NCBI GenBank assembly: GCA_002293845.1
Contig: DBEA01000010.1
Location: 565-64,564 of the forward strand
DNA: 64,000 nt
Reading direction: 5' to 3'
Source of the DNA: Patescibacteria group bacterium UBA918
Lineage (GTDB): Bacteria > Patescibacteriota > Minisyncoccia > Phycocordibacterales > UBA918
The notes beneath the pieces were generated by a model, which searched no databases, was not told the origin of the DNA, and saw nothing but the letters and a program-made list of their open reading frames with translations. This document shows, piece by piece, positions 3,732 through 55,200 of the stretch; within the stretch, counting starts at the first letter, position 1; each line of letters begins with the position of its first letter. The position numbers and the translations under genes were made by a program.

Positions 3732-4325
3732 TCAACATATTTGCTCGTTCTCTTTTTTCAAACTTATCTCGGCGATAAATCTATTTACGTCACGAGATAA
3801 CCTCACCGTGTATTTAGGGCGGCTGCTTTTTTGGCTCGCGCTATAAATTTTTGGTTGATAGCCGAGTATTTCCATCATACTCTTCACATCCGTGGCCAGA
3901 TCTAAAATATTATTGGTAAAATTCACCATCTTGTAACCGCGGTCTGAATAGACACTCCCATCTGTCTGTATTAATCCACGAAGGCAAGCTGAGATGTACA
4001 TATTGTCGCGAAATATCCAACCAGGTACTCTGACGTTCTGTTTAAATTTTGAGCCCTTACCCACTTTCCACGGCATATAGATATCTAGTGCGTTTGAATA
4101 CACACTAATGTTGAAATAGGTATCGCGGGGACCGTTTACTTTACTGACTTTATTTTTGGGAAATAGTAAGTTAAGGGCAATACATATATCGTTTTCTATG
4201 CCTGGATAGGCCGCGTCACATGTTATTCGAAGACGTGTGGCACGTTTATTGGGTCTGGATAAATTACCATCGCCCATAGCGACTCCAATGATATATGCCA
4301 AATTTACTTTGGCAGCCATTAGCAT
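3732..4325 (-). CDS. LAGLIDADG homing endonuclease (two-motif, free-standing)
   Basis: Motifs LAYIIGVAMGDGNL and LRGLIQTDGSV. AT-rich. TATAAT 6 nt upstream of the ATG. Lies 35 nt downstream of tRNA-Leu on the same strand. Confidence 0.8.
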   Translation of the reverse strand: MLMAAKVNLAYIIGVAMGDGNLSRPNKRATRLRITCDAAYPGIENDICIALNLLFPKNKVSKVNGPRDTYFNISVYSNALDIYMPWKVGKGSKFKQNVRVPGWIFRDNMYISACLRGLIQTDGSVYSDRGYKMVNFTNNILDLATDVKSMMEILGYQPKIYSASQKSSRPKYTVRLSRDVNRFIAEISLKKENEQIC

Positions 4326-10015: not shown

Positions 10016-10879
10016 TCAACCAAGTTTTCGGTACATCCCGCCGTCCTCTTTGATGAGGCCGTTCATCTCCATACGCATCAAAATAATAGCGACCGACTCG
10101 GTCGGAAGCTCTGAGCGGCGGATCAAAAGATCGCGTTCTTGCGGTTCGGAAAGCAGGTTGATGATGGTCTGTTCTTCGAGCGACAAAAGGGGAGTGAAAC
10201 TCGGCGCGCGGTCGTCTTTGATCTCGATCCCGAGCGTGTCGAGAATATCGGCCGCTTCGGTGACCGGCCGCGCGCCGAGTTTCATAAACTGATGCGTACC
10301 TTTGGAATTGTCCGAAAAGATGCTCCCGGGCACCACCAGGAGTTCACGATTATAGTCGACGGCGAGACGAGCGGTGATCAGGGAACCGCTTTTTTCGCCG
10401 GCTTCGATTATGAGCGTAGCTTGCGATATTCCCGCCACCAATCGGTTACGCTCCGGAAATGACCAGGTGATGGCCTTGAAATCGGGATCGTATTCGGAGA
10501 GTAGCCCGCCGCCTTCTTCGAGTATTTTGTGCGCCAATCGCAAGTGAGCGCGGGGATAGATGACGCCGTCACTTAAACCGCCGCCGGGAATGGCCAGTGT
10601 GTATAGACCGTTATCGATAGCCGTTTGATGCGCCAGCGAATCGATACCGAGTGCGAGGCCGGATACTATTCCTATATTATGTCCGCGTAGTCCGGAGATG
10701 AGGTGGTCGACGACTTGCTTGCCATAGTTGGTGTATTTGCGCGAACCGACGACCGACAACAGCTTCATTTTCGGGTCGGGCAGCACGCCGCGATAATTTA
10801 GCCGCTTCGGTGGTTGGGGAATTTCAAAAAGGGCTCGGGGAAAATCACTTTTTGCTAGTTCATCGACGGGGAAGTCCAT
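10016..10879 (-). CDS. dprA: DNA processing protein DprA (Smf)
   Basis: VVGSRKYTNYGKQVVDHLISGLRGHNIGIVSGLALGIDSLAHQTAI Rossmann-like DprA core. TAGAAT 7 nt upstream of the ATG. Confidence 0.8.
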   Translation of the reverse strand: MDFPVDELAKSDFPRALFEIPQPPKRLNYRGVLPDPKMKLLSVVGSRKYTNYGKQVVDHLISGLRGHNIGIVSGLALGIDSLAHQTAIDNGLYTLAIPGGGLSDGVIYPRAHLRLAHKILEEGGGLLSEYDPDFKAITWSFPERNRLVAGISQATLIIEAGEKSGSLITARLAVDYNRELLVVPGSIFSDNSKGTHQFMKLGARPVTEAADILDTLGIEIKDDRAPSFTPLLSLEEQTIINLLSEPQERDLLIRRSELPTESVAIILMRMEMNGLIKEDGGMYRKLG

Positions 10880-10902
10880 TCCTTACATTCTAACATCTAA
10901 TA

Positions 10903-10932
10903 CTTGACAAAAATCTTGATTTGTGTATAATA
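10903..10932 (+). promoter_or_regulatory. Near-consensus sigma70 promoter TTGACA-16nt-tgTATAAT
   Basis: cTTGACAaaaatcttgatttgtgTATAATag read directly. No protein gene follows for about 250 nt. Confidence 0.6.
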
Positions 10933-10938
10933 GAAGTT

Positions 10939-11090
10939 GTACCACACACCTACGGCATAGAGTGTGGTATGACCAGGGCGCTTGAGGCGCTCCATTGCTA
11001 GGGGTCGGTTTTTAATTTGAGGGGAGACAGTGCCGACAATGTCTCCCCGTTTCAAGTCTGCGTTAGGTAATCGCAGGCTTTTTCTTTTGT
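10939..11090 (+). ncRNA. Candidate small RNA or structured leader between the strong promoter and an intrinsic terminator (CTGCG-ttaggtaat-CGCAG + GCTTTTTCTTTT)
   Basis: Internal hairpins CCACAC/GTGTGG and GGGGAGACA-gtgccgacaa-TGTCTCCCC. No convincing ORF. The overlapping minus ORF 10897..11124 has no RBS and a low-complexity tail. Confidence 0.3.
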
Positions 11091-11127
11091 CTAAAATCTC
11101 GCTTTGCGCTATTGTATAATCCAAGTT

Positions 11128-11152
11128 AGCTGTGGGCGGCCCGTAGGGCCGC
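11128..11152. repeat. GC-rich tetraloop hairpin GTGGGCGGCCC-gtag-GGCCGCCCAC in the serS 5' region; a member of the terminator-hairpin family but without a U-tract
   Basis: Same stem as the secY terminator at 55172 (GGGCGGCCC-gcag-GGCCGCCC). Confidence 0.5.
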
Positions 11153-11187
11153 CCACCGCTACCACTTTAATTCCTATTTGTTAGCGC

Positions 11188-12489
11188 ATGCTCGACATCA
11201 AATTCATCCGCGAGAATCTGGACATCGTCAAAATGGCGGCCACTAAAAAGAAGATCAAGATCGACCTTGATCGCCTGGTCGCGGTGGACGATTCGCGTCG
11301 CGAAATTATGACGAGACTCGAATCTCGCAAGGCCGAGCAAAACATGGCCAGTAAGCGTATCGCGGCGGAGTCTGAGCCGGGCAAGCGCGCTGTTTTCATC
11401 GGCGACATGCAGAAGCTAAAGACCGAGATCCAAGCGGATGAGGAGGCGCTCAAACCGATCATGGAAGAGTGGCAGGTATTGATGCTTCAGGTGCCGCAGG
11501 TGCCCGACATGACCGTGCCAGACGGCGATAGCGACGCCGATAATGTCGAGGTGAAAAGCTGGGGCGATACCACGCACTTCGATTTCGCGCCGCAGACCCA
11601 CATCGATCTGATGCAGAAGCTCGGCATGGTGGATTTCGACCGCGGCACCAAAGTGCACGGCTTCCGTGGCTACTACCTCATTAACGACGGCGCCCTTTTG
11701 TCTTGGGCCATTTGGAATTACGCCAACGAATTCTTCCTCAAGAAGGGGTTCAGTCCGATGTTGCCGCCGACCATCGTGCGTAAGGCGAACCTATACGGCA
11801 CCGGACACTTACCGAACGACGCCGAAGACGTTTACCATACGCAAGATGACGATTATCTCATCGGTACCAGCGAGGTGTCGACCATGGGCTATTACACCGA
11901 CGACATCCTCGAGAAGTCGCAGTTGCCGATCAAGCACCTTTCTTTCTCTCCTTGCTATCGCCGCGAAGCCGGCAGTCACGGCAAAGACGTCAAAGGTCTC
12001 ATCCGCGTCCACGAATTCTACAAAGTGGAGCAGGTGGTCTTGTGCGAGGCCAGCCACGAAGAGTCGGTTAAGTGGCACGAGTGGATCAATCGCAATACCG
12101 AAGAGTTTATCGAGACTCTCGGTATCCCATATCACACCGTGCTCAACTGCGGCGGAGATATCGGTCAGGGCCAGGTCAAGAAGTACGACATCGAACTTTG
12201 GGTGCCGATGGAACAAAAGTATCGCGAGATCAGCTCGGCTTCCTACTTCCATGATTTTCAAACGCGTCGTTTCAACATCCGTTATCGTGACGAAGACCCT
12301 AACGCGCCTGAGGGCGCGCGGGCCGGAGGAAAACTGCGCTACGCTCACTCCCTAAACTGCACCGCCATTCCGACCCCACGCATCCTGGTTTCGTTGGTGG
12401 AGAATTTTCAGCAAGCCGATGGTAGCGTGAAGATCCCTGAACCGCTCCAGAAATACATGGGCAAGGCCGTTATCTCTAAGGCATCTTAG
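11188..12489 (+). CDS. serS: Seryl-tRNA synthetase
   Basis: N-terminal coiled coil MLDIKFIRENLDIVK... and class II core motifs (…FRGYYL…, GSHGKDVKGLIRVHEF). Confidence 0.9.
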   Translation: MLDIKFIRENLDIVKMAATKKKIKIDLDRLVAVDDSRREIMTRLESRKAEQNMASKRIAAESEPGKRAVFIGDMQKLKTEIQADEEALKPIMEEWQVLMLQVPQVPDMTVPDGDSDADNVEVKSWGDTTHFDFAPQTHIDLMQKLGMVDFDRGTKVHGFRGYYLINDGALLSWAIWNYANEFFLKKGFSPMLPPTIVRKANLYGTGHLPNDAEDVYHTQDDDYLIGTSEVSTMGYYTDDILEKSQLPIKHLSFSPCYRREAGSHGKDVKGLIRVHEFYKVEQVVLCEASHEESVKWHEWINRNTEEFIETLGIPYHTVLNCGGDIGQGQVKKYDIELWVPMEQKYREISSASYFHDFQTRRFNIRYRDEDPNAPEGARAGGKLRYAHSLNCTAIPTPRILVSLVENFQQADGSVKIPEPLQKYMGKAVISKAS

Positions 12490-13429: not shown

Positions 13430-13600
13430 TCATTTGCTGACCAGGGTTTGCTCGACCTTGGCGATCTGGTTCTTCTTGATGGTTTCGGCCACGTCGCGAC
13501 CGGAACTCCAGGCAAAGAACCAGATGAAGGCTATGAGTAGTACCCAGTCGATCAGGTTCACCTGATCTTTGTCGTAACTGTCTTTTGACTCGTTTGCCAT
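13430..13600 (-). CDS. Small membrane protein (56 aa), hypothetical; below the ORF-track size cutoff
   Basis: Perfect SD AAAGGAGGT 6 nt before the ATG. MANESKDSYDKDQVNLIDWVLLIAFIWFFAWSSGRDVAETIKKNQIAKVEQTLVSK, with one TM helix. Confidence 0.55.
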   Translation of the reverse strand: MANESKDSYDKDQVNLIDWVLLIAFIWFFAWSSGRDVAETIKKNQIAKVEQTLVSK

Positions 13601-15640: not shown

Positions 15641-15671
15641 AACGGCCGGCACTGAAAGTGCCGGCCGTTTT
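15641..15671 (+). terminator. Intrinsic terminator
   Basis: AAAACGGCCGGCAC-tgaaa-GTGCCGGCCGTTTTCG. Confidence 0.7.
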
Positions 15672-30421: not shown

Positions 30422-31294
30422 ATGAAGATCGCGATAATGACCTCACGTGTGATAGAGGAGATCAAGGGACTCACTGAAGAGTTGCGGACCCGCGGACACG
30501 AGGTAACGCTTTGGCCGCTTGATCAAATCAAACCAGAAATGTTCGTCGACGGATCGCTAGCTACTGAGCTGTCTCGGTTCGATCTTGTTTATTATCGTTC
30601 AGGATTTTCCGATGCCGGAGCCTTCGAACTGGGTCGGTTACTAGAAAAGACGCCGGGTCGTCTGATCAATAGAGCCGTCTTTAGACCGCTCACATCCAAC
30701 AAGATCCATCAAGCCATCGCTTCCATCAAATGCGGCATCGCCATTCCGCCGACTTTTATAGGTCGAAATGTTTCCTTTGATACTTTAAATAAAGAGTTCG
30801 GTCTACCTTTTATATTAAAGGCCGCGCACGGTATCCAGGGCGATAAAGTATTTTTGATCCACGATAAAGACACTTATAATAAGCGACTGGATGAGGTATC
30901 GAGTGAAGTGATGTTTCAGAAATTCATCCCTAACGGCGGCGACTACAGGGTTTTTGTATTGGGAGGCGAGGTTCATGACATCTTCAAGCGCGTGGCCGCC
31001 GAAGGTAATTTCAAAAACAACATGGCCCTTGGCGCACGAGGAGTACGAGTGACCGATGTGACGATGCGTAAGAGGTTGGCGGCGATCGGTACTACCATAG
31101 CAAAAAGCATGGAAATCGAGATTGGAGGCATTGATGTCATAGAATCGTCTGAGGATGGACAGTTGTATTTTCTAGAAGTGAATGTCAATCCAGGATGGAG
31201 AGGACTCGATTCTACTTTAGGCGGAAACACCGCTGCTACCGTGGCGGATTATTTTGAACGTCTGCTCAAATCATCCAGCACCACATTGCTATAA
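30422..31294 (+). CDS. RimK-like ATP-grasp ligase
   Basis: GLPFILKAAHGIQGDKVFLI, YRVFVLGGEV, YFLEVNVNPGW. Confidence 0.7.
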   Translation: MKIAIMTSRVIEEIKGLTEELRTRGHEVTLWPLDQIKPEMFVDGSLATELSRFDLVYYRSGFSDAGAFELGRLLEKTPGRLINRAVFRPLTSNKIHQAIASIKCGIAIPPTFIGRNVSFDTLNKEFGLPFILKAAHGIQGDKVFLIHDKDTYNKRLDEVSSEVMFQKFIPNGGDYRVFVLGGEVHDIFKRVAAEGNFKNNMALGARGVRVTDVTMRKRLAAIGTTIAKSMEIEIGGIDVIESSEDGQLYFLEVNVNPGWRGLDSTLGGNTAATVADYFERLLKSSSTTLL

Positions 31295-32142
31295 ACTCTC
31301 TCCACGTCGAAACCTGCCGCCGGACTAAAAATGTCCATTTGTGGCGCTTTATTGACCTCAAAGACAAGAGGTCCTCTTTCTGTTCTTACTAGATCAACGC
31401 CAGCTACCCGCAGTTCGGCCTTCTCGGCAGCCCCGATGCATATCGATTCCTCTTCGGCGGATATGGGTATCTTTTCCGGTTTGCCTCCTTGCGATACGTT
31501 GTTGTAAAACCCGTCGGAGCTAGATCGTTTGATAGCCGCGATGATCTTACCATCAAACACGAACACTCGAATATCATGGTCGTTCGGTATATATTCTTGT
31601 ATGAGCGTAAGCTCCGAGTCTTGTTTTATGTGTGTCTCTAAGCTAGCTTTGTCTTCCACTTTCCACACGTTTTTTCCCTTTGAACCGGTTTTTTTGACTA
31701 CGACCGGAAATTGCAATCGCTGTTCAATGTAGGTTTTATTTTTTTCGTATGAATGAGGTGTCACGATAAGAGTGTTAGGTACCTTGATGCCATTTAGAGG
31801 TAAAGATACCATCATTGTGATCTTGTCTGCCGTCTTATCAGAGACCAGGTTCGCTCCATCGATGAAGATCGGCACCTTCTCTTGTAGTATCCGACCGATC
31901 AGATAGGTTCGATAAGTATCTTTGTTGGTTCTCTTTATTAGGTAGGCCGTGTCATTGGTCGGCAAGGGCGCGTTATCATGTATCACGCATACAACAGAGT
32001 CCGATTCGTACCCGATCGAAATGATACAATCTCTAGTCAAAACGTTTTCTGTAGATATTTCTTGTTCAGCCGCTAAAGTGCGAAATAGTTCAAAGAAATG
32101 AATCGGATCATCGCCATTCATCACAATTATATGCTTGATCAT
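31249..32142 (-). CDS. RimK-like ATP-grasp ligase (AT-rich; convergent, overlapping the previous gene by 46 nt)
   Basis: QFPVVVKKTGSKGKNVWKV, IRVFVFDGKII, VFEVNKAPQ. Confidence 0.65.
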   Translation of the reverse strand: MIKHIIVMNGDDPIHFFELFRTLAAEQEISTENVLTRDCIISIGYESDSVVCVIHDNAPLPTNDTAYLIKRTNKDTYRTYLIGRILQEKVPIFIDGANLVSDKTADKITMMVSLPLNGIKVPNTLIVTPHSYEKNKTYIEQRLQFPVVVKKTGSKGKNVWKVEDKASLETHIKQDSELTLIQEYIPNDHDIRVFVFDGKIIAAIKRSSSDGFYNNVSQGGKPEKIPISAEEESICIGAAEKAELRVAGVDLVRTERGPLVFEVNKAPQMDIFSPAAGFDVERVYSNVVLDDLSRRSK

Positions 32143-34612: not shown

Positions 34613-34716
34613 GTTGACAGTTGTCAGTGATGAGTGGCACTTATAGTGTGTCCGCCGAAACAGCGAAGCTGTTTCGGCCAACTAAAACCTATAACCTGAA
34701 ACCTATAAACTAAATT

Positions 34717-46622: not shown

Positions 46623-46851
46623 CTGAAAGGTGTGACGGTTGACATTTTCTCCCGTTTCCCGTAGTATGGCCCCGTTCCGAACTGTTGCCCGAAAGCCCCT
46701 GGCAGGGCCTTCGGCGCGGTACACTCTCTCGTCGGGAACCTGTGCGGGGTAGGCCGTTACCTTCTTCCACACAGGGTTCTGACAAAGACCCTATATAAGT
46801 CACCGCCTGCACCAATTTTTGCGGATTTGGATGCAGAACGCGGCGGACGAG

Positions 46852-46900
46852 GAAAATATGGCGAGCCGTATACCCATACGGTGAGCCATATTTTACCGAA
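46852..46900. repeat. Long imperfect hairpin X (GAAAATATGG-cgag-CCGTATaccCATACGG-tgag-CCATATTTTAC), 45 nt upstream of rpsS
   Basis: Shares the inner stem and internal loop with hairpin Y at 60864..60915; the outer stems differ but stay complementary. Confidence 0.6.
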
Positions 46901-46938
46901 GTCTAACAAAGTTATGTGCCAAATCCGCGTAAATTGAT

Positions 46939-47283
46939 ATGTCACGATCTATATATAAAGGCCCATACGTAGACGAGCGCCTGCTCAAAAAGATCGCCGG
47001 CAAGAAGCCGGGATCGGTCGGCGCCATCAAGACTTGGTCGCGCGACGCTATGATCTCTCCGGAAATGGTGGGATTCACCTTCGGCGTGCACAACGGAAAG
47101 ACCCACGTCGAGGTCTTGGCCACCGAGGAAATGGTGGGCCATCGACTCGGAGAGTTCTCACCGACCACCAAGTTCCTCCGCCACGGAGGTAAGATGCAGA
47201 AGGAGATGGACGTGAAGAAGAAGGAGGCTGAGATCCAGGCCGCCAAAGCCGCCAAGGAACCGGCCGCTGCCGCTAAGAAGTAA
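46939..47283 (+). CDS. rpsS: 30S ribosomal protein S19 (with Lys/Ala-rich C-terminal extension)
   Basis: GHRLGEFSPTTKFLRHG block. Confidence 0.9.
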   Translation: MSRSIYKGPYVDERLLKKIAGKKPGSVGAIKTWSRDAMISPEMVGFTFGVHNGKTHVEVLATEEMVGHRLGEFSPTTKFLRHGGKMQKEMDVKKKEAEIQAAKAAKEPAAAAKK

Positions 47284-48441: not shown

Positions 48442-48870
48442 ATGTTGTTTCCTAAGAAAGTAAAACACCGAAAGTGGCAAGTAGGCCGCAAGAACGAGGC
48501 CAAGTTGTCTCGTCCCGACACTCGCGGCATCACCGTGGCTTTCGGTTCGTATGGTCTAAAGGCCACTGCCCCGGCGCGCGTGAAGTCCAATCAGATCGAG
48601 GCGGCTCGCCGCGTGATCTCGCGCACGCTCGGCAAGACCGGCCGCGTGTGGATTCGCATTTTCCCGGATCGCCCGGTCACTAAGAAGGCCGCCGAGACTC
48701 CGATGGGTAAGGGAAAGGGCGATCCCGATCACTTCGTATTCGAAGTGGCTCCTGGTCGAGTTTTATTCGAAGTGGACGGCGTCTCCGAAGACATCGCCCG
48801 CGAAGCGATGCGTAAGGCGACCGCCAAGCTACCTCTTAAGGGTCGCTTCGTAGCTCGCGACTCCGAGTAA
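48442..48870 (+). CDS. rplP: 50S ribosomal protein L16
   Basis: Sequence and operon position. Confidence 0.9.
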   Translation: MLFPKKVKHRKWQVGRKNEAKLSRPDTRGITVAFGSYGLKATAPARVKSNQIEAARRVISRTLGKTGRVWIRIFPDRPVTKKAAETPMGKGKGDPDHFVFEVAPGRVLFEVDGVSEDIAREAMRKATAKLPLKGRFVARDSE

Positions 48871-51093: not shown

Positions 51094-51099
51094 TAGAAA

Positions 51100-51215
51100 T
51101 CCCAAAATTGGCGCATATGCACGGGTTTCAGAAATTTCTCTCAGTCGCCGTAGGTTAGTCTACGTCTTCCTCGCGAAATTCCTTCCAACCCGCACATCTG
51201 CATTCAATTTTGAAA
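51100..51215 (+). repeat. Spc-operon intergenic repeat, copy 1 (~115 nt, about 90% identical to copy 2)
   Basis: ttggcgcatatgcacgggtttcagaaatttctctcagtcgccgtaggttagtctacgtcttcctcgcgaaattccttccaacccgcacatctgcattcaattttg. Confidence 0.8.
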
Positions 51216-51233
51216 TTCCTAATCAATTAATGT

Positions 51234-51624: not shown

Positions 51625-52158
51625 ATGTCACGACTTGGAAAACAACCGATCACTTTGCCCGCGGGCGTCGAGGCGACCTTTGTCGATGGAGTTTTGACCA
51701 TCAAGAAGGGTAACAACGTCCTCACTCGCGAGATGAAGGATGATGTGGAGGTTAAGGTGGATGGCACTACCATTACCTTGGCACCGCAGGCTGGTAGCGA
51801 ACTCGCCGCCGCTTTGTGGGGCACTTACGCCGCTCACGTTCGTAACATGATCGCGGGGGTGACCGAGGGCTTTAAGAAGATTCTCGAGATCGAGGGCGTC
51901 GGCTATCGCGCCGAACTGAAAGGCAACAAGCTCGTCTTGTTGATGGGTTACTCGCATCCGGTGGAGATGGAAGTGCCGACCGGCATCACCGTCGTCGTCG
52001 AGAAGGGAGTCGTCACTATTAGCGGCATCGACAAAGAGGCGGTCGGACAGTTCGCCGCCAACGTGCGCAAGGTGAAGGAACCGGAGCCTTACAAGGGCAA
52101 AGGTATTCGATATCAGGGCGAGTATATTATCAGAAAGCAGGGCAAGAAAGCCGTTTAA
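51625..52158 (+). CDS. rplF: 50S ribosomal protein L6
   Basis: MSRLGKQPITLPAGVE. Confidence 0.9.
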   Translation: MSRLGKQPITLPAGVEATFVDGVLTIKKGNNVLTREMKDDVEVKVDGTTITLAPQAGSELAAALWGTYAAHVRNMIAGVTEGFKKILEIEGVGYRAELKGNKLVLLMGYSHPVEMEVPTGITVVVEKGVVTISGIDKEAVGQFAANVRKVKEPEPYKGKGIRYQGEYIIRKQGKKAV

Positions 52159-52164
52159 AAATCC

Positions 52165-52281
52165 AAAAGTTGACGCATATGCACGGGTTTCAAAAATTTC
52201 TCTCGGTCGCCGTAGGTCAATCTACGTCTTCCTCGCGAAATTTCTTCCAACCCGTACATCTGCATTCAATTTTGTCTTTTT
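52165..52281 (+). repeat. Spc-operon intergenic repeat, copy 2
   Basis: ttgacgcatatgcacgggtttcaaaaatttctctcggtcgccgtaggtcaatctacgtcttcctcgcgaaatttcttccaacccgtacatctgcattcaattttg. Confidence 0.8.
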
Positions 52282-52304
52282 AAATCACTGTCTTAAACAA
52301 AGTT

Positions 52305-55141: not shown

Positions 55142-55164
55142 AACTTCCAGACTCAGGAAAAAAC

Positions 55165-55200
55165 AGGGCGGCCCGCAGGGCCGCCCTGTTTTTTCCTCTA
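55165..55200 (+). terminator. Intrinsic terminator AACAGGGCGGCCC-gcag-GGCCGCCCTGTTTTTTCC
   Basis: Perfect stem plus T-run after secY. Confidence 0.8.

Follow-up and report, generated by a model that had tools for sequence, protein, structure and literature searches.

The spacer between dprA and serS in Patescibacteria group bacterium UBA918 spans 308 nucleotides (nt) and holds, in order, a full-consensus promoter (P1), the body of a candidate small RNA (sRNA), a predicted intrinsic terminator, a second promoter (P2) and a GC-rich stem-loop that precedes the serS start codon. We analyzed this spacer within a contiguous stretch of 64,000 nt (positions 565 to 64,564 of contig DBEA01000010.1; hereafter the window), whose own coordinates are used throughout. 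The divergent left neighbor, dprA (10016-10879, minus strand), encodes DNA processing protein A (Pfam DNA_processg_A, 1.5e-63, and DprA_WH), and to the right serS (11188-12489, plus strand) encodes seryl-tRNA synthetase (Pfam Seryl_tRNA_N and tRNA-synt_2b). A first-pass annotation had proposed that the region comprises an independent sRNA plus a structured serS leader, and thereby a regulatory element; the autonomous unit and the leader hairpin both stand, but we find no conserved regulation of serS.

The organism behind the window is an uncultured, Kaiserbacteria-like representative of Patescibacteria (the candidate phyla radiation, CPR): its SerS is 85-87% identical, over the best tblastn segment, to proteins from metagenome-assembled genomes labelled Kaiserbacteria, Paceibacteria or Parcubacteria, and 86-89% identical when the full-length alignment is considered. 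Our comparisons draw on 160 loci surrounding relatives of this SerS, 80 from genomes and 80 from metagenomes (labelled Lnnn), in 133 of which dprA lies divergently upstream of serS. A metagenome scan for closer relatives returned none above 86% SerS identity, and exact-protein look-ups for covariation material returned clonal copies only.

P1 (10904-10931, plus strand) consists of a -35 box TTGACA (10904-10909) and a -10 box TATAAT (10926-10931) separated by 16 nt, which lies within the 16-18 nt spacing of sigma70-type promoters and, as judged from its letters, places it in that class. That it is the best promoter match in the window, as the first-pass annotation had claimed, is confirmed by the fact that it is the sole site on either strand of the 64 kb to match the consensus at 12 of 12 positions (the next best matches at 11), when only about 0.015 such sites are expected by chance from base composition. 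Transcription is predicted to start near 10938. On the opposite strand, 11 nt from the P1 -35 box and back-to-back with this promoter, lies the probable -10 box of dprA (TAGAAT, 10887-10892, read from the sequence), whose position 7 nt before the dprA ATG implies that the dprA mRNA would be leaderless; relatives have a TATAAT, TACAGT or TAnAAT box at the equivalent position. Promoters homologous to P1 (CTTGACAAA...TGTATAAT) occupy the same place in L001, L004, L011 and L027.

From about 10938 onward the plus strand forms four independent stem-loops (10939-10970, 10971-11006, 11021-11048 and 11054-11080). Hairpin 1 (10939-10970) has a folding energy of -11.8 kcal/mol, and hairpin 2 (10971-11012), in which GACC..GGUC surrounds a stem of 7 bp, two of them G-U (-11.3 kcal/mol), is followed by UUUUU and is a possible early termination point that would yield an RNA of about 75 nt. 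Hairpin 3 (11021-11048, -16.8 kcal/mol) contains the perfect 9-bp stem GGGGAGACA/UGUCUCCCC to which the first-pass annotation had drawn attention. The last element (11054-11089), located about 150 nt after the promoter as had been proposed, combines a 9-bp stem that includes one G-U pair and a 9-nt loop between AAGUCUGCG and CGCAGGCUU (11054-11080, -11.7 kcal/mol) with the ensuing UUUUCUUUU, i.e., a U-tract, UUUUUCUUUU; with its GC-containing stem-loop and U-run it has the makeup of an intrinsic terminator and probably acts as one. An automatic terminator scan passed over this hairpin solely because of its 8-nt loop limit. Short and long transcripts alike form the terminator stem in their minimum-free-energy folds, and inspection of the sequence by eye revealed no alternative antiterminator pairing.

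The region from 10938 to 11092 folds at -55.9 kcal/mol (z-score, z = -2.5), and only 2 of 200 shuffled sequences fold equally well, such that the region is structured beyond chance, moderately though not dramatically. We assign the RNA to the plus strand, given that hairpin 2 and the terminator together contain three G-U pairs, each of which the opposite strand would turn into an A-C mismatch, and given that promoter and terminator are found on the plus strand only. The view that these two signals delimit an autonomous, plus-strand unit poor in open reading frames (ORFs) is thus upheld, and we refer to this unit, from P1 to the terminator, as unit 1. No further copy of its body was found as a repeat within the window.

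Neither strand of the interval contains a credible ORF, in agreement with the first-pass annotation. One candidate, a 75-codon ORF on the minus strand (10897-11124), was predicted by a gene caller on one contig; Pfam assigns it to no family, a search of 5.8 billion proteins found no homolog, no promoter or terminator occurs on that strand, and its TTG start is situated inside the P2 -10 box, and for these reasons we rejected it as a gene. It had originally been dismissed for want of a ribosome-binding site, an argument without weight because most genes of this genome lack a Shine-Dalgarno (SD) sequence, but the dismissal itself holds on the other grounds. On the plus strand, the sole ORF that follows an SD-like motif (GAGG, 7 nt before GTG) comprises 29 codons from the GTG at 11030, or 26 from the ATG at 11039, and ends at 11120 in a TAA inside the P2 TATAAT, past the terminator. 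The hairpin 3 stem encloses the SD-like motif along with both start codons, no Pfam family matches the predicted peptide, and the likeness of its 'FLLSKI..AIV' segment to relatives is conserved promoter DNA read in frame, with non-synonymous substitutions. An accessible start, a stop within the unit and homologs, as would characterize a small protein gene, are all wanting, and we judge this ORF a non-gene.

The serS gene has a promoter of its own. The P2 block (GGCTTTTTCTTTTGTCTAAAATC...TATTGTATAAT, 11076-11120, plus strand) consists of a T-rich upstream element (11079-11089) and a -10 box (11115-11120), the latter being the second TATAAT that the first-pass annotation had noted before serS but had placed at 11112. 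Together with the hairpin that follows, this block is 76-86% identical in L001, L004 and L081, loci in which the body of unit 1 is unalignable, and TATTGTATAAT is identical in six genomes. One of the six, L003, has a gap of just 110 nt that includes the T-tract and P2 and has neither cassette nor terminator stem; because the block is conserved even in this cassette-free locus, we take P2 to be the true serS promoter. Non-homologous hairpins abut the same conserved T-tract in five relatives (L001, L002, L004, L008 and L081), and the T-tract, as read from these alignments, is primarily the upstream element of P2 and secondarily a U-tract for whatever hairpin precedes it.

Eight nt after the P2 -10 box begins the serS leader stem-loop (11129-11159, plus strand), a helix of 12-14 bp that is capped by a GUA loop and lacks a U-tract; the remainder of the leader (11160-11187) is unstructured, SD-less and rich in A, U and C. 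The GC hairpin at 11132-11156 is exact in the window, and in other samples of the organism a G replaces the T at 11131, which results in a perfect 14-bp stem of -33.7 kcal/mol. A helix of 12 bp with a GNA or AAA loop and no T-run, beginning 8-10 nt after the P2 -10 box, occurs in four species, i.e., the window, L001, L004 and L081, and was found in those four genomes only. Both sides are changed in seven of its 12 pairs, pairing extends to 96.7% of cells, a shift of register reduces pairing to 33-64%, and the covariation score was reached by none of 500 shuffles, although statistics drawn from four species are indicative rather than conclusive. Moreover, L001 and L004 contain G-U pairs that are valid on the plus (mRNA) strand only. 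These compensatory changes bear out the structured serS leader of the first-pass annotation and identify the stem-loop as a conserved structured element of the mRNA in the four species. With the start of transcription as predicted, the hairpin would lie at the very 5' end of the RNA made from P2, and by analogy with known systems it is most likely an mRNA-stabilizing stem-loop.

The same hairpin accounts for the state of this locus in public data, which is fragmented because contigs break within it: contigs from five samples (four assemblies and one Logan read-run contig set) end or degrade in the hairpin loop, where adapter sequence, errors and stretches of N appear. Strain hypervariability was considered as a cause of these breaks and ruled out, the breaks being an artefact of a very stable GC hairpin. 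A similar hairpin (55164-55188), followed by a T-run, lies after secY (identified through Pfam), and the first-pass annotation had equated the two stems. They do have 20 of 21 core bases in common, and the serS copy does lack a T-run, but the resemblance reflects a generic class of hairpin and not a specific repeat.

At the gathering score, Rfam returned three tRNAs from the whole window and nothing else, and ARAGORN likewise found only three tRNAs and no tmRNA or tRNA-like gene. Relaxing the threshold to E<=10 on 10780-11300 yielded three meaningless matches (to a miRNA, a frameshift element and Xist, all judged spurious) and no T-box (RF00230), 6S, signal recognition particle (SRP) RNA, riboswitch, tmRNA, RNase P RNA or other family; the four local hairpins are in any case unlike the rod-like 6S fold with its central bubble. 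Nothing was found at the gathering score in 20 related loci, T-box included. At E<=10 the cassettes of L011 and L027 gave weak sub-threshold matches that we take as chance, and the possibility of tmRNA or RNase P, raised by a motif resembling a T-arm in L011 and by 'AAGUCC' motifs in L027, received no support from the models.

Homologs of the body were equally elusive. Neither blastn, nhmmer at E<=100, nor a covariance model (built from the single body sequence and its fold, and run against 707 kb of related loci) detected any in the 160 loci, and Smith-Waterman scores of the body against the cassettes of the nearest relatives were at or below those of shuffled controls. The one match of the covariance model within the window (48665-48839) falls inside the L16 gene and is due to chance. 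A phage or mobile origin was also rejected: a phage collection gave no match, and matches to viral contigs involved the palindrome alone. Unit 1 is accordingly not a conserved, family-forming sRNA, and the claim of a conserved sRNA or serS regulatory element fails on this evidence. The first-pass annotation had named three outcomes that would count against its proposal, two of which, an Rfam null and the lack of conservation between homologous loci, are what we observed.

What relatives carry at the same position is highly variable. The gap between dprA and serS ranges from 14 to 2700 nt (quartiles 98, 227 and 566 nt), and in about 30 long-gap loci a near-consensus TTGACA promoter lies 17-95 nt from the dprA start and points toward serS. 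In at least 15 of these there is also a hairpin with a T-tract 35-150 nt before serS, so that a layout of distal promoter, body of 110-380 nt, hairpin with T-tract and serS promoter recurs in at least 15 related loci. The bodies share no motif other than T-runs; most are without an SD-led ORF, and their folds have z values of -1.4 to -6.8.

In other loci the slot houses genes. A family of small proteins preceded by a strong SD occurs in L001 (2679-2918), L008 (2750-2896) and L081 (2081-2311); these peptides of 48-79 aa have an N-terminal hydrophobic RxxFGW[YF]W and a PRPxxRxPPKL tail, their cassette DNA retains residual mutual homology (z = 5.5-9.9), and a profile search of a protein database with the family recovered only the protein of L001 itself. 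The slot of L002 encodes a different transmembrane (TM) peptide. A homologous gene of 142-266 aa (mostly 220-265 aa) is present in the gap of 11 loci (L018, L019, L021, L043, L062, L070, L076, L078, L084, L096 and L098), and several of its products, that of L070 not among them, begin with what resembles a signal peptide and end in an aromatic residue; to judge from these features the protein looks like a beta-barrel outer-membrane protein, which would be odd for CPR bacteria. Still other long gaps contain MscS-like and pilin-like genes. We also considered that unit 1 might be the decayed remnant of a gene for a small protein; tblastn searches, whether with the peptides of the relatives or with the longer genes of the slot, matched promoter DNA only.

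Closely related pairs of loci reveal how such contents change. L002 (353 nt) and L003 (110 nt), whose SerS proteins are 95.7% identical, are set apart by about 250 nt, a clean module whose ends lie just past the -10 box of dprA and just short of the T-tract, and L081, with a gap of 381 nt, has a SerS 95% identical to those of L005 and L006, each with a gap of 17 nt. In the Campbellbacteria-like pair L060 (2774-3000) and L138 (815-2500), serS DNA is 94% identical whereas dprA DNA is just 75% identical, the gap differs by a 1.46-kb insertion encoding a Cys-rich mini-protein and a 325-aa membrane protein, and the junction looks like a recombination boundary. From these sequence comparisons, the dprA-serS junction is evidently a hotspot where complete promoter-cargo-terminator modules come and go between near-identical genomes.

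We tentatively favor, at somewhat below even probability, the reading that the module from P1 to the terminator yields not a serS leader but an sRNA specific to this species, one that is functional or is at least expressed as a discrete transcript. Under this model P1, back-to-back with a leaderless dprA promoter, would initiate transcription near 10938, and RNA polymerase would pass the four stem-loops and be released at 11054-11089. The resulting non-coding transcript, a series of independent hairpins, would measure about 145-150 nt, or about 75 nt if transcription stopped early at 11012. P1, the body and the terminator stem would together be the lineage-specific occupant of a fast-turnover insertion slot that in other Kaiserbacteria/Paceibacteria is empty or holds unrelated structured RNAs, small membrane peptides or accessory genes. 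Such an RNA would be young and species-specific, and would most plausibly act in trans through its exposed linker and loops. The serS gene (unit 2) would be driven by its own conserved promoter, P2, whose T-rich element would double as the U-tract of unit 1 and thereby insulate unit 1 from serS; and the P2 transcript would open with the GC stem-loop of 12-14 bp, which would protect an SD-less mRNA from 5'-end-dependent decay. The start and stop sites, the stability and function of the RNA and the stabilizing role of the hairpin are all predictions. What speaks for function, and against pure junk, is that the full-consensus promoter, the terminator and all four stems have stayed intact in a type of streamlined genome that readily deletes spacer, the gap being shorter than 100 nt in a quarter of the related loci.

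Several observations weigh against this reading. The candidate RNA belongs to no Rfam family, and since the body has no homolog in the 160 loci, there is no covariation to support its four hairpins; the z of its fold is just -2.5, and the opposite strand folds equally well (z = -3.8). The closest relatives with a filled slot hold a small protein gene, not an RNA. Population data are uninformative, the same-species contigs of 4-5 samples being clonal, with at least 99.7% identity. Duplex folding of the RNA against the 54 translation-initiation regions of the window, a crude method, produced no target better than those of shuffled RNA. For the leader hairpin, the role of stabilizer is assigned by analogy alone.

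An alternative is that P1 and the terminator are the resident signals of a variable accessory-gene slot, left over after its cargo had been lost or had degraded in this lineage, and that the 150-nt transcript is a functionless by-product, with any residual role of P1 exerted at the DNA level, through the presence of RNA polymerase beside the overlapping dprA promoter or through divergent supercoiling. It would fit with the proximity of the P1 -35 box to the dprA -10 box, with a body that is unconserved and the second shortest among the measured cassettes without an SD-led ORF, with the presence of real cargo behind the equivalent promoter in relatives (the peptides of L001, L008 and L081, the TM peptide of L002 and the longer genes) and with the gain or loss of the whole module between 95%-identical genomes. 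In a decaying remnant, however, one would not expect the 12/12 promoter, the terminator and the perfect 9-bp stem all to be intact; useless spacer is readily deleted in close relatives; and no DNA or protein similarity to the relatives' cargo remains, although the cassettes of L001, L008 and L081 are still mutually recognizable. We regard this explanation as rather unlikely, though as the likeliest of the alternatives. A bolder reading is that the dprA-serS junction of Kaiserbacteria/Paceibacteria is an 'expression socket' in which short, unrelated cargoes are swapped as discrete modules. The near-consensus promoter beside dprA, a natural-transformation gene, and the fixed T-tract and serS promoter may frame such a site, the 150-nt RNA may be recently acquired functional cargo, and the site may resemble an integron-like cassette site without an integrase; this proposal is speculative, and we give it little credence.

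Two further explanations concern serS itself and a micropeptide. P1 could be an upstream promoter of serS, with 11054-11089 acting as a conditional (T-box-like, riboswitch-like or leader-peptide-controlled) attenuator. The unit is directly upstream of serS and in the same orientation, serS is T-box regulated in Firmicutes, the terminator is just 35-75 nt from the serS ATG in some distant relatives, and the 29-codon ORF, which crosses the terminator, contains four serine codons. Yet a cis-regulatory leader is unlikely because no model matches it (neither T-box nor riboswitch at E<=10, and none in the 20 related loci), because no antiterminator is visible and because the body is unconserved: sensor RNAs are strongly conserved, but even where SerS is 87% identical this body cannot be aligned. 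It is unlikely also because serS keeps an invariant P2 downstream of the terminator, retained in cassette-free genomes, and because relatives with a 95% identical SerS have no leader whatsoever. In sum we consider attenuation of serS improbable. More improbable still is that unit 1 encodes a micropeptide, whether the 26-29 aa product of the plus-strand ORF or the 75-aa product of the minus-strand ORF. The GAGG before the GTG, the SD-led small hydrophobic peptides in the same slot of L001, L002, L008 and L081, and the gene call for the 75-aa ORF would speak for it; but the SD-like motif and both starts of the shorter ORF are locked in the -16.8 kcal/mol stem, its stop past the terminator would make the terminated RNA a non-stop message, its product has no hydrophobic segment of TM length, and what similarity it has to relatives is confined to promoter DNA, with non-synonymous changes. 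Neither ORF has a Pfam family or homolog, and that on the minus strand lacks a promoter and has its start codon within the -10 box of P2.

Several features of the wider window were also recorded. Most of its genes lack an SD and many have TATAAT 6-8 nt before the ATG (e.g., those at 3732-4325, 31249-32142, 32199, 33383 and 10879, the last being dprA), which suggests, from the sequence, that many mRNAs are leaderless, that of dprA among them. Other genes have G-poor, C/A-rich leaders composed of CTAAAMC-like repeats, examples being repeat family D2 (at 34681, 44308, 48406 and 50869) and the secY leader, and the serS leaders of relatives contain the same CTAAACCC repeats. Hairpins with a perfect, GC-rich stem of 8-12 bp and a GNA or GNRA loop occur at 16 sites between 7546 and 63840 (e.g., at 15643, 22289, 24421, 39719, 50653, 55164 and 57858), most of which are flanked by an A-tract and a T-tract and by this arrangement look like bidirectional terminators. 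At 46639-46940 (plus strand), a second strong promoter, TTGACA-17-TAGTAT (10/12), after a NUDIX-like ORF is followed by about 270 nt without an ORF, extending to an S19-like gene at 46939; this stretch (z = -5.4, no Rfam match) may represent an RNA not yet annotated or the structured leader of a ribosomal-protein gene. A direct repeat of 132 nt, 88% identical, is present at 51094-51225 and 52156-52287, the copies being 1062 nt apart. Finally, in the gap after the gene downstream of serS lies a 56-aa ORF (13430-13600, minus strand) with the hydrophobic core LIDWVLLIAFIWFFAW, which is called as a gene on the organism's other contigs and has no Pfam family.

CPR bacteria have tiny genomes and, to our knowledge, little known regulation and no genetics, and a literature search on CPR non-coding RNAs and leaderless genes found nothing specific. 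If expressed, the RNA would be among very few candidate trans-acting small RNAs proposed in CPR/Patescibacteria. The firmer gains are descriptive: a conserved serS promoter with a covarying 5' stem-loop, a largely SD-less and leaderless genome and a module hotspot. All of these elements are of ordinary kinds and do not overturn current understanding, with the modular indels beside dprA being mildly interesting.

Among known systems, unit 1 most closely parallels the lineage-specific intergenic sRNA genes, e.g., those of enterobacterial trans-acting sRNAs, which likewise have their own sigma70 promoter and terminator and consist of stem-loops and linkers; such genes span 50-300 nt, and unit 1, at about 150 nt, has no ORF and ends in a 3' hairpin with a U-tract. 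The candidate RNA differs in lacking a conserved seed, a homolog in the data searched and a target that stood out among the regions tested. T-box leaders (RF00230) precede aminoacyl-tRNA synthetase genes, serS in Firmicutes included, and resemble unit 1 in that a structured RNA with a terminator lies ahead of a synthetase gene in the same orientation. Unlike them, unit 1 has no Rfam match at E<=10 and no specifier loop, T-box sequence or antiterminator that we recognized, is unconserved, and is followed by a separate conserved promoter between terminator and serS. The relatives' slots, with SD-led, presumably strongly expressed peptides of 48-79 aa that have an N-terminal hydrophobic segment, recall small hydrophobic peptide or type I toxin-like loci, and the presence or absence of slot contents in near-identical genomes recalls flexible genomic islets at fixed sites; the cassette of the window differs from both in that no such ORF, antisense partner, integrase, repeats or target-site duplication was seen.

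The two remaining comparisons involve the hairpins on either side of P2. Hairpin 4, with its U-tract, fits the class of this genome's intrinsic terminators (e.g., that of secY, 55164-55194), to which the serS hairpin is also related in its loop type and in 20 of 21 core bases. The serS hairpin nonetheless differs from that class in having no U-tract on either strand in four species and in its location downstream of a promoter, and for these two reasons we do not consider it a terminator. Stem-loops at the 5' end stabilize bacterial mRNAs, as in the 5' untranslated region of E. coli ompA and in B. subtilis, where 5'-end-dependent decay is blocked. The serS stem is unusually long and GC-rich by this standard (up to 14 bp, -34 kcal/mol) and is restricted to a four-genome clade, but it resembles these stabilizers in lying within about 1-4 nt of the predicted 5' end, in being followed by an unstructured leader and the start codon, and in the conservation of its structure rather than its sequence.

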